Below the pieces are notes generated by a model that was given only the letters and a program-made list of their open reading frames with translations, was not told the DNA's origin and did no database searches. DNA of 15,754 nucleotides from a virus. Shown one piece after another: positions 1 to 6,957 of the stretch. Location of the stretch: positions 1-15,754 of IMG/VR virus record IMGVR_UViG_3300045988_040537; one strand, given 5' to 3'. The translations under genes were made by a program, and so were the position numbers. Every line of letters begins with the position of its first letter. Within the stretch, counting starts at the first letter, position 1.

Positions 1-32
1 GGTATCCGTATGCATTTTTTCGGTACTCCAGT
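1..32. repeat. Left inverted terminal repeat (32 bp)
   Basis: ggtatccgtatgcattttttcggtactccagt is the exact reverse complement of 15723-15754. Identity stops at position 33 (c versus the a at 15722). Confidence 0.95.
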
Positions 33-100
33 CCCCCATGATCGGGTGCTCGCTAACAGCACAGCTAATGGTACGAGGCTGGGCATTAGCACACGCTATA

Positions 101-149
101 GAAAAAATTCAAAAAAGGGCTTGCATTTTCCGGCAACCTGTGCTATACT
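101..149 (+). promoter_or_regulatory. Left-end early promoter with A-tract UP-like element
   Basis: -35 TTGCAT (121-126), a 17-nt spacer, then extended -10 TGcTATACT (141-149). A-tracts gaaaaaattcaaaaaa lie at 101-116. The predicted transcription start is near 155-156. Confidence 0.65.
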
Positions 150-154
150 AAGAC

Positions 155-558
155 CATGGAAGAGGTGAGTCGCAAGACCCGGGCGGCGATCCTCTCCATG
201 ACAGCCCGAACCGCGCGCGGGATTCACGTATGCGCGGACAGCCTGACAGCCTGACGCGAGAGCGTCAGACAGCCCGCCGCCGTGGCTGGTGGTGTGGTCG
301 TCGCCGCCGTGTATCTTGAAAACTGCATACAGGCCATGACAGCCCGGAACACGCGCAAACACGCCACGACGTGCAGAGCAGTAAAGCGCAGAGCGTGAAC
401 GTGTTTCCGGTGGGCAATCCTTAATGTTGTTTGGTAAATTGCCCGGCGGTATTCAACCCGCCTAAACATAGGGACAAAAATGTGGGATAGCCCTATGGGA
501 TGAAAAGTCTTTGAAAATTAAGACGAAACGCGCCCACGGCACGCCGCCACGCGCGGCG
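155..558 (+). ncRNA. GC-rich untranslated leader, candidate structured RNA (function unknown)
   Basis: No plus-strand ORF of 60 aa or more and no RBS. The region is visibly more GC-rich than the rest of the genome. A 5'-terminal stem pairs 155-165 with 191-200 (10 bp, one bulged A). A perfect 7-bp hairpin with a GAGA loop lies at 251-268. GACAGCC occurs five times. It lies directly downstream of the 121-149 promoter. Confidence 0.3.
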
Positions 559-594
559 CGTCGGCAAACACCAAATTTAACAACAAAAGGAGAA
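542..594 (+). repeat. Intergenic module copy 1: GC hairpin + CGTCGGCAAA + A-rich tract + RBS
   Basis: The hairpin pairs cgccgc (542-547) with gcggcg (553-558), followed immediately by cgtcggcaaacaccaaatttaacaacaaaaggagaa. Positions 555-594 match 933-972 at 38 of 40 positions. Confidence 0.85.
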
Positions 595-599
595 CTATT

Positions 600-926
600 A
601 TGAACACGAAAACCGCGATCCAGATTCTAGCTAATGAAAAGGTCAACACAATCCTAAATGAGCGAGACAACGCGCCATATAGCAAAACCGTAGCGCACCA
701 GACGCTGAACCGCCTAAATAGCTGTCAGGCATGGACATATGAAGATGGCTATTTTATCGTCCTTATCTCTTATAATACAGAAGTGGCGCGCATAGACACG
801 CGAACACGCATTTGCTATGATTATCTGCGTAAAGTCTACGGCTACACGGCAACCAGCGCACAGCACATTAGCAAATTCATGAAAAAGTTTGGGGTGATTA
901 AGAAAGTGACATACCGCCCGGTTTAA
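600..926 (+). CDS. Hypothetical early protein (108 aa)
   Basis: ATG lies 8 nt after AAAGGAG of module copy 1. It is the first ORF after the left-end promoter. I recognise no motif with confidence. Confidence 0.75.
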   Translation: MNTKTAIQILANEKVNTILNERDNAPYSKTVAHQTLNRLNSCQAWTYEDGYFIVLISYNTEVARIDTRTRICYDYLRKVYGYTATSAQHISKFMKKFGVIKKVTYRPV

Positions 927-972
927 TCGGGCGGCGCGTCGGCAAATACCAAAATTAACAACAAAAGGAGAA
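914..972 (+). repeat. Intergenic module copy 2
   Basis: The hairpin pairs ccgcccg (914-920) with cgggcgg (928-934). The TAA stop of the upstream ORF (924-926) sits in the loop. The sequence cgcgtcggcaaataccaaaattaacaacaaaaggagaa follows. Confidence 0.85.
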
Positions 973-978
973 AGAATT

Positions 979-1155
979 ATGAGAAGCTACACTGTAGTAT
1001 ATGACCCGAATAAGGGTTATTGCGCATGGGTAAGAGGGAATGGATTCAAATATCAGGTTTCTTTCTGGTACAAATCCCTCGCGCGTCTTAATCGCTATTG
1101 GGGTTTCCAGAACGGCATCCGTTTTAAATCTGTAAAGGACGTGGTTTACAAATGA
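979..1155 (+). CDS. Small hypothetical early protein (58 aa), absent from the ORF track
   Basis: My translation is MRSYTVVYDPNKGYCAWVRGNGFKYQVSFWYKSLARLNRYWGFQNGIRFKSVKDVVYK. The ATG lies 8 nt after AAAGGAG of module copy 2, the same geometry as the other two module-led genes. Confidence 0.65.
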   Translation: MRSYTVVYDPNKGYCAWVRGNGFKYQVSFWYKSLARLNRYWGFQNGIRFKSVKDVVYK

Positions 1156-1292
1156 CAGACGCAATCACACACGGCTTCGGCTGTACGGCGCTTTTCATCA
1201 TCATCAGCGCGATTAGTTTTTTAACCTTAATTGGCTTTGATTCTCTTTATCAGGAAATTAAAAAATGGTGGAAACATCGTCGAGGGAATTAA
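1152..1292 (+). CDS. Small putative membrane protein (46 aa), absent from the ORF track
   Basis: An ATGA start/stop overlap links it to the previous ORF. My translation is MTDAITHGFGCTALFIIISAISFLTLIGFDSLYQEIKKWWKHRRGN, which has one hydrophobic helix and a basic tail. Its TAA stop lies in the loop of the module 3 hairpin. Confidence 0.55.
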   Translation: MTDAITHGFGCTALFIIISAISFLTLIGFDSLYQEIKKWWKHRRGN

Positions 1293-1332
1293 TCCCTCGC
1301 GTCGGCAAATCCAAATAAACAACGAAAAGGAG
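1281..1332 (+). repeat. Intergenic module copy 3
   Basis: The hairpin pairs cgaggga (1281-1287) with tccctcg (1293-1299). The TAA stop (1290-1292) sits in the loop. The sequence cgtcggcaaatccaaataaacaacgaaaaggag follows. Confidence 0.8.
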
Positions 1333-1339
1333 TAATAAA

Positions 1340-1630
1340 ATGATCGACTTTGAAAAGGTATTTGCAGTTAGCGCAGATATCCAGCCCTATTGTGTAACTC
1401 TGCGCCCCGAAAATCTGGAACGTACCTACGGAGTATTCCTTGCCAGAATGGCAACCACGTTTGACGTTTCCGACGCACTCGCGGCAGAACTTGACTGGAT
1501 TGACAATGAATACAATGGCATCGTAACGCAGACTTTCGGGCGCTATCAGTTAGCACTTTCTCGCGAAAACTGGCTGTCCGTTGCCGTAGTAACGTCTTAT
1601 CGTTATTACAACGGAGGTAGACGCTCATGA
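1340..1630 (+). CDS. Hypothetical early protein (96 aa)
   Basis: ATG lies 7 nt after AAAAGGAG of module copy 3. An ATGA overlap links it to the next ORF. Confidence 0.75.
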   Translation: MIDFEKVFAVSADIQPYCVTLRPENLERTYGVFLARMATTFDVSDALAAELDWIDNEYNGIVTQTFGRYQLALSRENWLSVAVVTSYRYYNGGRRS

Positions 1631-1863
1631 TTAGTGTTATCAACAAAAAATACACTCGGGACGAGGTATCACGCCTAATTGACGCATTTGACCGACTAAA
1701 TGCAGAGTGCTGTGAAGTGTTCGATGGTGTTTGTGACACATGCGAATACAAAACTCTTTGTTGCGACATTCAGAGAACCGAGCAGTTCCTGCTGGACCGG
1801 CTAAATGCAGGATTTTACGGCGATAAAAAGCGCGTCCATCGGTCAAAATTACGCGATAGTTAA
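1627..1863 (+). CDS. Cys-rich small early protein (78 aa), possible metal-binding
   Basis: GGAGG RBS lies upstream and the start is translationally coupled (ATGA). The cluster CCEVFDGVCDTCEYKTLCC holds 7 Cys within 19 residues. Confidence 0.7.
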   Translation: MISVINKKYTRDEVSRLIDAFDRLNAECCEVFDGVCDTCEYKTLCCDIQRTEQFLLDRLNAGFYGDKKRVHRSKLRDS

Positions 1864-1874
1864 ATATTTAACGG

Positions 1875-1903
1875 TTGACAATTTCTGCAATCTATGTTAT
1901 AAT
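1875..1903 (+). promoter_or_regulatory. Consensus sigmaA-type promoter for the p6-like/SSB-like unit
   Basis: TTGACA (1875-1880), a 17-nt spacer, TATAAT (1898-1903). Both hexamers match consensus perfectly. Confidence 0.75.
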
Positions 1904-2052
1904 TATGGCGTAGCCAGCAAGAGAATCCATATCTTTTCTTCCTCCGCGGGCGCAGCGCTCTCCCGCCAAACCCGCACACGGGCGGCACAGTTGCTTGTTC
2001 AGGTGCAACCCCTGATCCGCCCAAAATATCAACTCTTAGGAGGAACAACAAA

Positions 2053-2358
2053 ATGAGAAAGCCCATGATTACCCGCACCATCCAGACCACCCGCGCAACC
2101 GTGATGTTTATCGACACCACCAACCCCACCCCGTACACCGACGACATTGTGCTCCCGCGCACCTACAAGAACGACGACGCCATGTTGAAGCTGGTAAAGC
2201 AGATGTGTGAGACGTCCACGATCAAGGCCGTGGCTATCATGTCCAGCACGGTTGAGAGCGCGCTTTACGGCATGAGCGAGAGCGACTTTGTCGCCCACGC
2301 GCACATCATCGAGAAGCCCAGCAAGGCCGATATCGACAACGACACCGAGAACAACTAA
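2053..2358 (+). CDS. Putative phi29 p6-like dsDNA-binding (histone-like) protein (101 aa)
   Basis: Size and position match phi29: 101 aa versus 104 aa for p6, directly upstream of an SSB-like gene and the TP-pol pair. As I recall p6, its N-terminal ITKTTVNV and C-terminal VYELPVEKFLEVA resemble ITRTIQTTRATV and ALYGMSESDFVAHA here. The tail is acidic. Codon usage is GC3-rich, as in the capsid gene, which suggests high expression. Confidence 0.55.
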   Translation: MRKPMITRTIQTTRATVMFIDTTNPTPYTDDIVLPRTYKNDDAMLKLVKQMCETSTIKAVAIMSSTVESALYGMSESDFVAHAHIIEKPSKADIDNDTENN

Positions 2359-2373
2359 AGGAGGAACTGAACA

Positions 2374-2751
2374 ATGGAAGGCTACAAGGCAAATATCACT
2401 TTCGCAAGCAAGGAACTGACGGGCAAAGAGAAGGTCATGCTTAAAGACCTCACAAACGCCGTCTCTCTCGACGACGCTACCGACGGCAATGCACCTCTTG
2501 TCGTCGACCTCGACTATTACGCACTCATTCACATCCACAACGAACGTAGTGAAAACAAGGAATACGACGTGTGTGTCATCGTGGACAAGGCCGGAACAAA
2601 GTATCGCACGGGTTCCGAGAGCTTCCGCACCTCGCTCGAGGAAATCGTGGAGGATATGGCCGACACTGGTGAGGAGTGGAGTCTCAGCGTCTACCGCATG
2701 CCCAGTAAGAACTACAAGGGCAAGAGTTTCATCACCTGCTCTGTCGTGTAA
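2374..2751 (+). CDS. Putative phi29 p5-like single-stranded DNA-binding protein (125 aa)
   Basis: 125 aa versus 124 aa for phi29 p5, at the same syntenic position. The C-terminal pattern VIVDKAGTKYRTGSESF...LSVYRMPSKNYKGKSFITCSV parallels my recollection of p5 TIFAADGSLYSAISKTV...VKVVQGTSSKGNVFFSLQL. AAAGGAGG RBS. Confidence 0.5.
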   Translation: MEGYKANITFASKELTGKEKVMLKDLTNAVSLDDATDGNAPLVVDLDYYALIHIHNERSENKEYDVCVIVDKAGTKYRTGSESFRTSLEEIVEDMADTGEEWSLSVYRMPSKNYKGKSFITCSVV

Positions 2752-2757
2752 GTGATT

Positions 2758-2808
2758 AGCAAGAGGGCTTCCGGTTATGCGTCTTTTCCGGAAGCCCTCT
2801 TGCTTTCT
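2758..2808 (+). terminator. Intrinsic terminator or attenuator (17-bp perfect stem, weak T-tract)
   Basis: agcaagagggcttccgg (2758-2774) pairs perfectly with ccggaagccctcttgct (2788-2804) around a 13-nt loop. Only ttct follows. Confidence 0.7.
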
Positions 2809-2821
2809 ACGGAGGTAAGAT

Positions 2822-3535
2822 ATGGCTAATGACTATTCTGCGGAATACGCTAAAGAAATAAAGCGAATAAAGAGCTTTACTTCTAAAGCAACTAAGAGGG
2901 GCTACAGATTCCCTGAAAATGTGGTTCCCGCAACGCCGAAAAGGGTAACTAAGAAATCACTAGAAAGAGTTCGCGCAATCACGCCACAAACACTATATCA
3001 AAAAGCAACATATTATGACCCGTTGACGGACGCTCTGTTTCCGGGCGAAGTAGGCCGCACCATTGAACGATCAAGAGCCGCGAAGAAGGCGGCAAAGACT
3101 AAATACGAAAAACACATAAAGACTACGGTTTCAGAACCCGGACAGCCACCTAACGACGTCGACACGGTGTTGCGATGGGTTGAAGATGAACTTGCTAAAT
3201 GGAACATCGAGGATTTAGGACTACCATCGTGGGCGCATTGGAAGCGCAGGACTATAACCTACGACAAGAACACCTTGCAAAGTGTACTTGATGGCGCAAT
3301 AGCCAGAGACGGCAGACGCGCAGTCGCACAAAGGTTACAAGCCCACGCCACACAGATAAACGATAACGTGACGGATATCCTATATAACATATCAGAACGA
3401 GCGAATGTAGCAAGTGAGCTTGTTTGGTTCGGGACAGTGATAAAGGGAGAAGCCTTAACCGAGCTAGAGCGTATGCGGATATCCGTTGCGGAAGTTGAAT
3501 TTGGTTGGGAAGATAATGAGGACGAGGTCTGGTAA
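2822..3535 (+). CDS. Candidate terminal protein (replication primer), 237 aa
   Basis: It lies immediately upstream of the protein-primed PolB and overlaps it, as phi29 gene 3 does with gene 2. The size is similar (237 versus 266 aa). The N-terminal half is basic and the C-terminus acidic. The genome has ITRs. I did not recognise any direct sequence motif. Confidence 0.6.
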   Translation: MANDYSAEYAKEIKRIKSFTSKATKRGYRFPENVVPATPKRVTKKSLERVRAITPQTLYQKATYYDPLTDALFPGEVGRTIERSRAAKKAAKTKYEKHIKTTVSEPGQPPNDVDTVLRWVEDELAKWNIEDLGLPSWAHWKRRTITYDKNTLQSVLDGAIARDGRRAVAQRLQAHATQINDNVTDILYNISERANVASELVWFGTVIKGEALTELERMRISVAEVEFGWEDNEDEVW

Positions 3536-5474
3536 AGTTTTGGTAGCCGACTTTGAAACAACCGTATACGAGGGGCAGGTCAATACAGAAGTTTGGGCGG
3601 CGGCGTGTGTTGAACTGTTCACAGAAGATGTGAAGATTTTTCACTCGATCGGTGAACTGTTCGACTACTTTGCCAGCCTAGAAAGCAACATCGTTTGCTA
3701 CTTCCACAACTTGAAGTTCGACGGTTCTTTCTGGCTAAGCTATCTCATGGATGTGCTCGGCTGGTCGCAAGCAATGGTTGTGCATGGCGAGGACGACATT
3801 GAATTTCTCAAGCCTAGGGAAATGCCAAACAACACATTTAGTTACAGCATATCTTCGATGGGGCAATGGTACAGAATACTTATTAAATACCGCAACAAGA
3901 TAATCGAATTGCGTGACAGCCTTAAACTACTACCATTCACAGTTGAAAAGATCGGTAAGAGCTTCAAGACAAAGCACAAGAAACTAGACATGGAGTACAC
4001 TGGTTTTCGCTTTGCTGGCTGCGAAATAACAGAGGACGAGAAAAAGTACATCGCCAACGACGTGCTTGTGGTCAAGGAAGCTGTTGAAATCATGTTTCAG
4101 GAAGGGCACAAGAAATTGACAATAGGGTCTTGCTGTTTGGCTGAGTATAGGCAGATTCTCGGCAACAAGAGATTCAACGAGCTTTTTCCTGATGTATATG
4201 AAATTCAGCTTGACGATTCATTTGGAAGTCCAAACGTTGGTAAATACATCAACCAGTCTTACCGGGGAGGATGGTGCTATTTAGCACGAGGAAAAGAACA
4301 GCAACTCAAGCATAATGGCACAACAGCAGATGTTAATTCACTGTACCCATCCATGATGTCGTCAGAATCCGGTAACACTTATCCCGTGGGAATCCCGACC
4401 TTTTGGCGAGGAGACTACATTCCAGAAGAAGCAAATGCTTACGACAAGTTTTATTTCGTTCGGTTCAAAACACGCTTTTATTTGCGCCCCGGAAAATTAC
4501 CTTTTATTCAGATAAAAAACACCCTTTCTTATCGTGCCAACGAAATGCTTGAATCCTCCGACCGCTATAACCCAGCAGATGGCAAGTATTACAAGGAGTA
4601 TTATGACGTAAACGGCGATTTACAGGAAGCAAGAGTTGTAATGACCATGACGCAGACCGACTTCAAGCTATTCAAGGAGCACTATGAACTGGTTGACTTT
4701 GAGATTCTGGATGGCTGTTACTTTGAAGCTAGAATAGGGATTTTTGACGAGTACATTGAGAAGTACAAGAAGATTAAGCTAGAGAGCACAGGAGCTAGGA
4801 GAGAGCTTGCTAAACTGTTCTTGAACAACCTGTACGGGAAAATGGCAAGTAGTCCTGTCAGCAACTTCAAGATAGCCTATCTAAAAGAGAACGGCGTAGT
4901 CGGCTTCAACACCATTCTAGCCAATGATAAGAAACCGGGCTACATCCCCGTCGGCTCTGCCATCACCAGTTACGCTAGATGCTTCACCATCCGCGCGGCA
5001 CAAGCGAACTATCAGGGCTCAGATAAACCCGGCTTCATCTACGCAGACACTGATTCAATACACTGTGACCTACCAGCAGACCAAATCAAGGGCATTAAAG
5101 TTCACGATAAGAATTTCTGTTGCTGGAAGCTAGAAAGTTCATGGGACGATGCTTACTTTGTGCGTCAGAAAACATACATTGAACATGTCACGCATGAGAA
5201 TCTTGAACCAGTAGACAAGCCTTATTACAGCGTTAAGTGCGCAGGAATGCCCCAGCACTGTAAAGACCTGTTCGTCATGAGTATGACAGGTGACTACGAC
5301 ACAGAACTAACAGAGGAAGAACAAGATTTTCTTTACTACGACAAAGAACACACGCAAAAGCACATTAGAACATTACAAGATTTTGATATAGGTCTATGTG
5401 TTCCCGGAAAACTTCGCCCTAAAACGATCAAAGGCGGCGTTCTGCTGGTGAACAGCATGTACCAAATGAGGTGA
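3516..5474 (+). CDS. Protein-primed family-B DNA polymerase
   Basis: Exonuclease motifs: ExoI VADFETT, ExoII FHNLKFDGSF, ExoIII YIANDVLV. Polymerase motifs: A DVNSLYPS, B KLFLNNLYGK, C YADTDS, and KxY QKTY. I prefer the ATG at 3516 to the TTG at 3486 used by the ORF track. The 20-nt overlap with the TP gene implies coupling. Confidence 0.95.
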   Translation: MRTRSGKVLVADFETTVYEGQVNTEVWAAACVELFTEDVKIFHSIGELFDYFASLESNIVCYFHNLKFDGSFWLSYLMDVLGWSQAMVVHGEDDIEFLKPREMPNNTFSYSISSMGQWYRILIKYRNKIIELRDSLKLLPFTVEKIGKSFKTKHKKLDMEYTGFRFAGCEITEDEKKYIANDVLVVKEAVEIMFQEGHKKLTIGSCCLAEYRQILGNKRFNELFPDVYEIQLDDSFGSPNVGKYINQSYRGGWCYLARGKEQQLKHNGTTADVNSLYPSMMSSESGNTYPVGIPTFWRGDYIPEEANAYDKFYFVRFKTRFYLRPGKLPFIQIKNTLSYRANEMLESSDRYNPADGKYYKEYYDVNGDLQEARVVMTMTQTDFKLFKEHYELVDFEILDGCYFEARIGIFDEYIEKYKKIKLESTGARRELAKLFLNNLYGKMASSPVSNFKIAYLKENGVVGFNTILANDKKPGYIPVGSAITSYARCFTIRAAQANYQGSDKPGFIYADTDSIHCDLPADQIKGIKVHDKNFCCWKLESSWDDAYFVRQKTYIEHVTHENLEPVDKPYYSVKCAGMPQHCKDLFVMSMTGDYDTELTEEEQDFLYYDKEHTQKHIRTLQDFDIGLCVPGKLRPKTIKGGVLLVNSMYQMR

Positions 5475-5774: not shown

Positions 5775-5809
5775 AAAATCCCCTGTAGAATCATCTACAG
5801 GGGATTTTT
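5775..5809. terminator. Bidirectional intrinsic terminator between convergent genes
   Basis: aaaatcccctgtaga (5775-5789) pairs with tctacaggggatttt (5794-5808) around a 4-nt loop. An A-tract on one side and a T-tract on the other give a U-tail on either strand. Confidence 0.85.
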
Positions 5810-5922: not shown

Positions 5923-6957
5923 TTAATAAGAGAGTGCTTTGAGTACAGCTTCTTTACAACGGAGGTCTTTAAAGCGGAAACACCCATGCTCAAAATAGTA
6001 TCTCATGTTAGCAATAAAGAAGTCGTTCTTCTTGAGCATAACATAGTTCACGTCATGGTCGTCAGTTGTAACTGTAATGCGCACTCTGAATGTTCTGTCT
6101 GGTGTTGTATCACAGTATACAATTCCGCGCTCAGGGTATTCCCTGATTCCAAACTCCGTGTTTTTATACTTTAGTGTCGCAATGTATCTACTTTCGCCAG
6201 CAGGTTTCTCGATGAACGCCTGACTGTCATTCAGGTACACGCACTCACTCGAATATGCAACATAGCTATTGCGTGCAAAGGCTCTATTAAACCCACTTTC
6301 TTTCTGTGCCTTACTTGCACTATCGACAAACCCCTGTTCAAGCACAAAGCCGTCACCCCGGAGGAAGCGCGTGGAATCGTTAAGTCTTTCGCTTATACCC
6401 ATTTCCACATAGTAGGGATTGATTATCGACACAGGGTTGGCGCACATATAGACAGGCACATAACGCACCTGTTCGCCGTGACCTCTGGCAATACTGGTAT
6501 GCACAGACAGTAGCTTTCTAATTTCATCCTGACAGTAGTGATTAGTCTCACTCTGAAATTCATCGAAGAACATCCGTTGCACATCACTGAACAGGTGACT
6601 ATACTTTTTAAGCTGGTCTGCGCTGTTCAGGGAAATAGCATATCCGCAACTATCATCATCCAAATATAACTCATGGAAGATGCCAGAAGCGCGCCGTCTG
6701 CTTGTCATTACAGAACCTGCAAAGAACAGCCCAGCAATGTCCTTAAAGAATTTGTCTGCGCAATCATCCAGTTCATAGTTATACCTGTAAACAAGGCAGA
6801 ACTTTTCTCCACGATCTTTGAATCTGTTCACAAGCATACGGGAGAAGTACACAGTCTTACCGCCTGTGCGGTTAGTAGTACACATATAAATTTCCGGCTT
6901 CTTGCCATTCAGGTCTTTCATGCTGAGTAACTTTGTGCCATCATAATATTTTCCCAT
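5923..6957 (-). CDS. DNA encapsidation (packaging) ATPase, phi29 gp16-like
   Basis: Walker A is NRTGGKT and Walker B is MFFDEF. CANPVSIINPYYVEMGI parallels phi29 gp16 CLSNAVSVVNPYFLFFNL, and the C-terminal GCFRFKDLRCKEAVLKAL parallels GYLRFDNQVIRNIAYELF. AAAGGGAG RBS. Confidence 0.9.
   Translation of the reverse strand: MGKYYDGTKLLSMKDLNGKKPEIYMCTTNRTGGKTVYFSRMLVNRFKDRGEKFCLVYRYNYELDDCADKFFKDIAGLFFAGSVMTSRRRASGIFHELYLDDDSCGYAISLNSADQLKKYSHLFSDVQRMFFDEFQSETNHYCQDEIRKLLSVHTSIARGHGEQVRYVPVYMCANPVSIINPYYVEMGISERLNDSTRFLRGDGFVLEQGFVDSASKAQKESGFNRAFARNSYVAYSSECVYLNDSQAFIEKPAGESRYIATLKYKNTEFGIREYPERGIVYCDTTPDRTFRVRITVTTDDHDVNYVMLKKNDFFIANMRYYFEHGCFRFKDLRCKEAVLKALSY

Follow-up and report, generated by a model that had tools for sequence, protein, structure and literature searches.

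The window analysed here is the whole of a 15,754-bp stretch of viral DNA (IMG/VR record IMGVR_UViG_3300045988_040537), and its subject is the region at positions 150-599, which lies between a promoter at the left end and the first early gene and contains an RNA related to the hammerhead ribozyme. The window is a complete linear genome with perfect inverted terminal repeats of 32 bp. It encodes a protein-primed type-B DNA polymerase (PolB), a packaging ATPase of the phi29 gp16 type, a phi29-type connector, a major capsid protein and a tail knob, together with a phi29-type single-stranded DNA-binding protein (SSB) and a p6-like double-stranded DNA-binding protein, whose gene is located at 2053-2358. 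The search for transfer RNA (tRNA) and tmRNA genes found none. No deposited phage matched the whole genome at the nucleotide level, and the nearest named relatives by polymerase are the Clostridium symbiosum phages CS229P1-P3 at about 60% identity, with unannotated phages from human faeces standing similarly close. The virus is a phi29-like phage of gut Clostridia. At least 130 relatives were found in IMG/VR, and 80 of them were kept for comparison as L001-L080.

The original prediction, made from the letters of the sequence alone, had described this region as free of open reading frames (ORFs), rich in GC and situated behind a strong promoter. No credible ORF is present at 150-599, where plus-strand ORFs reach at most 38 amino acids and have no ribosome-binding site (RBS). 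Minus-strand ORFs of 50-88 amino acids in the same region matched no Pfam family, and neither strand of 96-469 gave a Pfam match when its coding potential was assessed. The GC fraction is 0.61 at 151-450 compared with mostly 0.41-0.54 elsewhere, and two other patches of the genome also reach 0.57-0.60. The promoter is formed on the plus strand at 101-149 by A-tracts (101-119), a -35 element TTGCAT (121-126), a 17-nt spacer and an extended -10 element TGcTATACT (141-149), and transcription is predicted to start at about 156. The extended -10 element and the A-tracts are in place and the promoter is plausible, but its strength was not borne out. The -35 element is weak. It matches the consensus at three of six positions, and for this reason the promoter was absent from the list produced by the consensus scan. 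At the aligned position L002 carries a perfect TTGACA-17-TGgTATAAT promoter, which supports the plausibility of its counterpart in the window.

The folding energy of the region deviates from expectation with z-scores of -4.8 on the plus strand and -4.3 on the minus strand, so that RNA structure is likely, and since the energy is low on both strands it does not by itself assign the structure to one of them. When the leader was compared with its relatives, L001 was found to share 217-612 at 90% identity and L002 to share 307-606 at 93%. Neither 150-306 nor the coding sequence after the ATG can be aligned with L002, indicating that the 3' half of the leader is better conserved than the surrounding genes. 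Searches of the 80 related loci with the leader by blastn and nhmmer matched only L001, L002 and a 24-nt island common to L016 and L017.

Homology with type-I phage hammerheads and architecture of the variant core

The 24-nt island, which was the sole similarity beyond the clade of the window, led to the hammerhead. In L016 it is preceded by CUGACGA and followed through GAAAC, a hairpin and GUC, which makes a complete type-I hammerhead with the stem I ACACCC/GGGUGU. The Rfam model Hammerhead_3 matched this element below threshold at 26.7 bits, and we rejected the corresponding type-III reading because type I gives a 6-bp stem I and fits at least 120 canonical examples. These examples were obtained by scanning IMG/VR with the 23-mer GTCTTTGAAAATTAAGACGAAAC, which occurs in at least 120 stretches on contigs of 4-282 kb (loci L081-L200). 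Nearly all of the matches listed have the order NNNNNN-CUGAnGA-23-mer-hairpin-GUC^N'N'N'N'N'N' (the caret marks the cleavage position) with an RBS just downstream. In a set of 29 diverse canonical examples the stems were 100% paired and showed covariation, and stem III covaried as well although it had not been used in the selection. Intergenic type-I hammerheads of phages and prophages have been described previously (Perreault et al. 2011, PMC3088659), and some 13-kb relatives of the window (L109 and L193) have the published arrangement, with a complete hammerhead and its own stem I before each gene.

Positions 507-529 of the window, comprising stem-loop II and GAAAC, are identical with the 23-mer. 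The covariance model built from the canonical set matched the window at 501-562 with 36.4 bits (E about 2e-8). The match is local and covers model positions 12-57 of 65, so that C3 and stem I are missing from it. Judged by these alignments, the conserved 3' part of the leader is homologous to the hammerhead ribozyme. At E<=10, no Rfam hammerhead model matched the window, the same models also miss the canonical phage examples, and no known RNA family was found by Rfam at 100-1400.

Two further observations concern stem-loop II. The exact 23-mer GUCUUUGAAAAUUAAGACGAAAC, spanning stem-loop II and GAAAC, is kept in at least 120 viral contigs although stem II is normally free to vary, and this exact conservation may point to a further constraint, for instance a bound protein or a tertiary contact. 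In L031 (308-476), stem II of a canonical CUGACGA hammerhead is enlarged by an insertion some 90 nt long that contains additional hairpins, and a single core-less site lies at about 780.

To describe the variant in the window, we aligned 24 sequences from three clades with MAFFT, namely the window and 23 sequences found by patterns from the neighbouring conserved hairpins. All of them come from phi29-like contigs about 14-18 kb long, and gut samples are the main source. On the plus strand the elements follow one another as an anti-leader arm, the 3' strand of stem I, an invariant C, hairpin A, hairpin B, the core strand, stem-loop II, GAA and stem III. The anti-leader arm CCUUAAUGUUGUUUGGUAAA (419-438) is complementary to the repeated gene leader including the Shine-Dalgarno sequence AAGG. 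The 3' strand of stem I, UUGCC (439-443), pairs with GGCAA at 563-567, giving five pairs that are 99% paired in the alignment and three of which are changed on both sides across the clades. It is followed by the invariant unpaired C444. The inserted hairpin A (445-462; GGCGG-UAUUCAAC-CCGCC) is nearly invariant in the 24 sequences, and the inserted hairpin B (467-497) has a variable stem with three covarying pairs and a conserved loop AAAAUGUGGGAUA. In this loop GUGGG (482-486) forms the 5' strand of a pseudoknot whose 3' strand is CCCAC (533-537). The pseudoknot is 99% paired, and in clade C3 (the L203 clade) it shows a compensatory change from G-C to C-G, in which GUGGG/CCCAC becomes GUGCG/CGCAC.

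The core strand GGAUGAAAA (498-506) stands in place of CUGAnGA, and 54 nt containing the two hairpins separate stem I from GGAUGAAAA. The canonical model aligns U501-A506 to U4-A9, and the consensus across the clades is G-N-G-A-N-G-W-A-R-A (497-506). Stem-loop II (507-524; GUCUU-UGAAAAUU-AAGAC) comes next, and positions 507-528 are as in canonical phage hammerheads and invariant in the 24 variants. As in a hammerhead, stem II is closed by G10.1-C11.1 and followed by G12-A13-A14 and A15.1. The segment at 525-532 consists of the invariant GAA (G12-A13-A14) and the 5' strand of stem III, ACGCG (528-532). Downstream of the pseudoknot strand, a small inner hairpin (544-547/553-556) and the 3' strand of stem III, CGCGU (557-561), occupy 544-561. 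Stem III is 100% paired with two covarying pairs. The first predicted cleavage site lies at 562-563 in GCGCGUC^GGCAAAC, where U561 corresponds to U16.1 and C562 to H17.

Over the whole fold, 98.1% of the alignment cells were paired, compared with 33-45% when the partners were slid. Ten pairs were changed on both sides, including the three in stem I and one in the pseudoknot, and none of 500 shuffles reached the score. Three helices with covariation therefore surround the core as in a hammerhead, and every helix is consistent. By this comparison, stem-loop II, G12-A13-A14, stem III (with A15.1-U16.1), C17 and stem I are kept from the hammerhead, and an insert of two hairpins with a loop-to-strand pseudoknot is placed where CUGAnGA normally joins stems I and II. 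C444 is invariant next to stem I, and a conserved UAAA precedes stem I as it does in the canonical examples; we read this tentatively as a sign that the insert entered right after C3. As part of the reading of the whole early leader set out below, we take the last 145 nt or so of the leader (419-562), with modest confidence, to be a pseudoknotted RNA derived from a type-I hammerhead.

Two other structures were considered and set aside. A local hairpin at 413-419/438-444, proposed by energy minimisation, competes with stem I and is not conserved in the other clades. A kissing interaction between the loop of hairpin A and loop II was dropped because the candidate positions vary without compensation. 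As regards the loop-loop complementarity between molecules by which the phi29 packaging RNA forms rings, the conserved loop of hairpin B pairs intramolecularly with 533-537, and inspection of the alignment, made without a dedicated test, showed no conserved pair of mutually complementary loops. We also observed that in all three clades the 4-5 nt after GAA recur a few nucleotides downstream (ACGCG and ACGCC, ACAC and ACAC, AUGC and AUGY; 528-561 in the window). The strand before the cut can thus pair with the core as stem III or extend its own hairpin, and this alternative pairing may act as a conformational switch.

One core and several core-less sites

Ahead of the genes at 979 and 1340, the module that surrounds the predicted cut, CGCGUC^GGCAAAyACCAAA...AACAACAAAAGGAG, occurs again. 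At the first site, the leader of gene 1 (GGCAAACACCAAAUUUAACAACAAAAGGAGAA, 563-599) precedes the ATG at 600 and contains an RBS at 588-593. The second site (914-978) is composed of a hairpin at 914-934, with the stop codon of gene 1 in its loop, followed by CGCGU at 935-939 and a predicted cut between C940 and G941 ahead of the gene at 979. The third site (1281-1339) is built in the same order from a hairpin at 1281-1299 with a stop codon in its loop, CGU at 1300-1302 and a predicted cut between C1303 and G1304, and the gene begins at 1340. All of these elements lie on the plus strand. Site 2 has no CUGAnGA or GAAA core nearby, no ribozyme core lies near site 3 either, and in all clades the core is attached to the first site only. 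The window has three sites, L217 six and L241 five, and approximate matching gave four copies of the leader module in L001 and five in L002.

When the sites were compared within each of four clades, the preceding 4 nt and the following 5-6 nt were constant and complementary to the arms of the clade's own core, and the hairpins preceding the sites differed from site to site. The core arms in the four clades are ACGCG/UUGCC, ACAC/UCUCC, AUGC/GCCC and ACAC/CACCC. In the window clade ACGCG pairs with CGCGU and the stem I strand UUGCC with GGCAA. The corresponding pairs in the L111 clade are ACAC with GUGU and UCUCC with GGAGA, and those in the L203 clade are AUGC with GCAU and GCCC with GGGC. The predicted sites were also examined for the hammerhead N-U-H rule. 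U16.1 was present at 74 of 74 sites, and H17 was C at 55, A at 16, U at 3 and G at none. As read from these sequences, the pattern of U16.1 with a non-G H17 is the hammerhead NUH rule.

The 30-nt arm at 415-444 was calculated to form duplexes of -20.7, -22.3 and -19.3 kcal/mol with the leaders at 563, 941 and 1304, respectively, whereas shuffled sequences gave -9 +/- 2.4 kcal/mol and the other 17 gene leaders -5 to -15 kcal/mol. Core-less sites also accompany canonical cores. L016 and L017 each have one canonical CUGACGA hammerhead and four core-less sites, and the downstream strand of the L016 core (ACAC and GUUUGCUUU) pairs on both sides of each substrate hairpin. The canonical cores of L086 and L177 are likewise accompanied by core-less sites. 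A second apparent core in L016 at 577-617 was rejected, as CUGAnGA and GAAAC occur together there by chance within a gene and no stem II is present. Taken together, the window and three further clades contain core-less substrate modules that are complementary to both arms of a distant core, as expected of a bipartite or trans-acting ribozyme.

In the L203 clade, the match to the core is better at the distal sites (AUC^GGGC) than at the cis site (AUA^GGGUU). In 14 of 14 genomes H17 of the cis site is A and its stem I contains G-U pairs, and the distal sites have C, rarely U, at H17 and Watson-Crick pairs (for example in L241 at 390, 648, 1097, 1344 and 1686). To judge from the sequences, it is as if the distal sites were the preferred substrates.

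The 5' half of the leader, the boxA-like motif and neighbouring features

The repeats and hairpins listed for the 5' half by the original prediction were all found again, with one coordinate corrected. The 5' stem between 155-165 and 191-200 is formed as 6 + 4 bp with one bulged A, and the hairpin at 251-268 is present as CUGACGC-GAGA-GCGUCAG. GACAGCC occurs in exactly the five places given (200-206, 237-243, 245-251, 268-274 and 338-344). The whole genome contains nine copies compared with 1.6 expected, and none of 200 shuffles reached nine. The repeated 13-mer extends to 23 nt with 87% identity (196-218 and 334-356). Of the two copies of cgccgccgtg, that at 302-311 is correct, but the first one lies at 275-284 rather than 277-286.

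The variable GC-rich part of the leader (155-306, plus strand) contains the 5' stem, four of the five GACAGCC copies, the GAGA-loop hairpin and a putative decayed promoter copy at about 266-300. In place of 150-306, L002 has two intact tandem promoters, and tandem duplications of promoter and leader are also found in L016 (three copies), L031 and L111. Based on these alignments, the 5' half of the leader is a variable remnant of a tandem promoter/leader duplication. When GACAGCC was compared with the promoter core of L002, only the copy at 266-281 matched, with three mismatches and not above chance, so that the idea of a decayed promoter derives solely from the L002 alignment. The spacer at 334-418 (plus strand), which contains the second copy of the 23-nt repeat, is 90-93% identical in L001 and L002 and has a homologue of the same length in the L203 clade. 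Its RNAalifold consensus of -7.5 kcal/mol showed little covariation and no convincing fold.

Between these two parts lies the motif GUGUAUCUUGAAAACUGCAUACAGG (309-333, plus strand), which every related clade has in its early leader, on the 5' side of the hammerhead or variant. A related 16-mer, CTTTGAAAACTGAATA, is found about 110-160 nt upstream of the 16S gene and within the 16S-23S spacer (L351, L353 and L286) of a Clostridiales, a Faecalibacillus and a deltaproteobacterial genome. Positions 315-330 of the window match CTTTGAAAACTGAATA at 14 of 16 positions. Since the positions in the rrn leader and spacer are those of boxA, we read 309-333 as a putative boxA-like antitermination signal. 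In rrn operons and lambdoid nut sites, boxA functions in antitermination and binds NusB/NusE. The motif of the window resembles these sites in sequence and in its promoter-proximal position in a long operon. It differs in occurring also near pemK RNA motifs in mobile elements. On the Streptococcus and Veillonella contigs L292, L299 and L326, a pemK RNA motif follows the 16-mer at a distance of about 150 nt, and SQ2397 and sRNA_0030 elements are close by. These contigs apparently share one mobile element carrying the 16-mer, and the motif is thus not limited to rrn operons and phages. Furthermore, the loop region of stem-loop II (CUUUGAAAAUUAA) resembles the boxA-like motif (CUUUGAAAACUGAA).

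Several features elsewhere in the genome were recorded. The gp16-type ATPase gene (5923-6957) is the sole large gene on the minus strand and is convergent with the polymerase operon, a gene order unlike that of phi29. Between them, a perfect inverted repeat at 5775-5808 with 15-bp arms is followed by a U-run, and in view of its position between convergent genes it is probably a bidirectional terminator. Another perfect inverted repeat with 17-bp arms (2758-2804) separates the SSB-like gene from that of the putative terminal protein. At 1875-1903, between the small early genes and the block encoding the p6-like protein, SSB, terminal protein and polymerase, there is a promoter that matches the consensus perfectly (TTGACA-17-TATAAT, with TG upstream), and because of it the ORF called at 1805-2056 may be no gene. 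Finally, L012, a related small phi29-like phage, has a tRNA gene at 1773-1843 among its early genes (70.8 bits), and the same holds for L013.

Proposed processing of the early RNA and alternative explanations

Based on these observations, we suggest, on balance and with limited assurance, that 150-599 is the 5' leader of the early operon and that a hammerhead-derived ribozyme in it processes the early polycistronic RNA at several sites. Transcription from about 156 would pass through the GC-rich duplication remnant, the boxA-like element, the conserved spacer and then the hammerhead-derived RNA. By a self-cut after C562, a leader RNA some 407 nt long and ending in a 2',3'-cyclic phosphate would be released, and the gene 1 mRNA would be left with a 5'-OH. 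The same single core would then pair with the two core-less modules through its ACGCG strand and the 25-nt anti-leader arm, and would cut behind C940 and C1303, acting on its own transcript or, once released, in trans. This would divide the early RNA into units at 563-940, at 941-1303 and from 1304 on. A hairpin would close each upstream product, and every downstream product would begin with 5'-OH-GGCAAA and carry the leader GGCAAA...AAGGAG. The Shine-Dalgarno sequence is covered by the anti-leader arm, so that translation may be coupled to cutting and arm binding. That the one core is a multi-site enzyme, as opposed to a self-cleaver used once, with guide-like arms (5 nt of stem III and an anti-leader of about 25 nt), cutting three to six modules, is a more tentative proposal, which we hold to be possible rather than probable; it would further mean that the insert substitutes for C3/U4 or is a regulatory (allosteric) domain.

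The hammerhead homology, the pseudoknotted fold, the repetition of the module, the complementarity and covariation between core and modules and the NUH pattern were all obtained by computation. Several points weigh against the processing proposal, and the main doubt concerns catalysis, as the cleavage is a computational prediction. The window is without C3 and U4 in their usual place, and CUGAnGA, the box joining stems I and II, is not found in window 1-4000. In the alignment to the canonical model, A505 occupies the G8 position, at which L001, L002 and other clades have G, and clade C3 is also off consensus at the A6 or A9 position. In published alignments of hammerheads, insertions between CUGAnGA and the stems do not exceed 1-2 nt (PMC10085705), so that activity of the insert-bearing form would be unprecedented. 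The covariation comes from few events, three or four at the clade level, and because the core-less sites are paralogues of the cis site, part of the arm match could be inherited and not selected. Pairing of the long arm at about -20 kcal/mol would also slow product release. The failure of the Rfam hammerhead models to match the window is a weak point, since canonical phage examples escape them too.

These doubts lead to an explanation that we regard as unlikely but still to be taken seriously, in which the core is a dead, hammerhead-like relic. The modules of hairpin and GUC^GG would then be cut by a host or phage RNase or remain uncut, and the conserved fold and the anti-leader arm would regulate translation or stability, acting solely by covering Shine-Dalgarno sequences. 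The non-canonical core without CUGAnGA and the A at the G8 position speak for this explanation, and so do the pairing of the arm with the Shine-Dalgarno sequences of all three leaders and the hairpin closing each upstream cistron. However, the strict U16.1 and non-G H17 over 74 sites fit hammerhead chemistry, and GAA, stem II and A15.1-U16.1 are invariant. The same architecture is moreover found with the canonical cores of L016, L017, L086 and L177, which is hard to explain unless the core recognises the sites.

The original prediction had favoured an analogue of the phi29 packaging RNA (pRNA), which would bridge the connector and the gp16 ATPase as in phi29, and had named a structured early leader and an array of protein-binding sites in the DNA as other options. 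The structured early leader was essentially right. The RNA runs straight into the first early gene. Comparison of folding and covariation with the relatives had been proposed as a check, and it found 419-562 conserved and covarying but 150-306 unconserved in L002, the closest relative. The pRNA analogue did not hold up, and we now give it hardly any credence. The genome does encode a phi29-type connector, ATPase and capsid, a structured non-coding RNA is encoded beside the left genome end behind its own promoter as in phi29, and a ribozyme cut at 562 would free a discrete structured RNA of about 407 nt. Nevertheless, the Rfam pRNA covariance model gave no match at E<=10 in the whole window or in 100-1400, and no pRNA was detected in nine relatives at the gathering threshold. 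The RNA of the window has no match to pRNA in sequence or structure and is not a separate gene, as no plausible terminator lies upstream of gene 1 (the plus-strand consensus matches are only 287-309 and 294-307, with weak T tails). Its conserved part is a relative of the hammerhead and is associated with mRNA leaders instead of packaging genes. Among relatives that share the packaging genes, the leaders are much shorter or differ greatly, only 3 of the 80 related loci have sequence in common with the region, and the model of the conserved leader part finds it in only a few clades. A 2024 review of phi29-like phages (PMC11476376) confines the known pRNAs to phi29 and related Bacillus phages. 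The DNA-level option, in which the GACAGCC cluster and the GC-rich repeats (about 196-356) are sites for an early regulator or the p6-like protein near the origin, is compatible with the RNA explanation for 419-562, and we judge it improbable. Five GACAGCC copies within 145 nt, the 23-nt direct repeat, the GACAG-type motifs adjoining the promoters of L002 and L111 and the presence of the p6-like gene are in its favour, but the motif overlaps decayed -35-like elements (TTGACAG) of the duplicated promoters, which explains its recurrence without binding, and 150-306 is not conserved between close relatives. From the sequence comparisons, the GACAGCC cluster at 200-344 is better explained by remnants of tandem promoter/leader duplication than by a binding-site array.

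We then compared the proposed processing element with known systems. It shares with the phage type-I hammerheads (PMC3088659) the identical stem-loop II and GAAAC, stem III, the NUH site and stem I, as well as the location on a polycistronic phage transcript immediately before an RBS and the presumed function in mRNA processing. While those phages have a complete ribozyme per cut site in tandem arrays, the window has one core and several core-less sites, and its CUGAnGA is replaced by a strand interrupted by two hairpins and pseudoknotted to the stem III region. The early genes of T7 contain RNase III sites between cistrons, which the host protein cuts within the duplex. They are similar in that repeated hairpin modules between early cistrons divide a polycistronic early RNA, but the sites of the window follow the NUH rule of hammerheads and show covariation with an RNA core. 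The discontinuous hammerhead of the mammalian Clec2 3' UTR (untranslated region), as summarised in PMC6765202 from Martick et al. 2008, also has enzyme and substrate parts hundreds of nucleotides apart in one mRNA. In that summary it has one substrate strand per enzyme strand and a canonical core, whereas here there are three to six modules and a 25-nt antisense arm. A search for trans-cleaving ribozymes is stated in the same paper. The non-circularly permuted SGC and CSG hammerheads (Eckert et al. 2023, PMC10085705) are similar in their unexpected connectivity, their pseudoknots and their comparative discovery. Their blocks are intact and reordered, while the window keeps the type-I order with block C interrupted and partly lost. 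In the literature that we covered, which is incomplete so that an earlier description is possible, neither a single hammerhead core with multiple core-less targets nor an insert-bearing variant was found.

For the phi29-like phages of the gut, the analysis removes a tempting pRNA annotation, for which these genomes offer no evidence. Small self-cleaving ribozymes are regarded as single-turnover and cis-acting. If the proposed processing takes place, the leader would provide a natural case in which a small ribozyme cleaves RNA under the direction of guides and a single core serves several covarying sites. It would also mean that the CUGAnGA strand, thought to be intolerant of insertions, can be interrupted by about 55 nt of structured RNA, which bears on searches for ribozymes and on the design of trans-cleaving hammerheads. 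In addition, it would give the phage hammerheads a concrete biological role in the division and control of early polycistronic mRNA.

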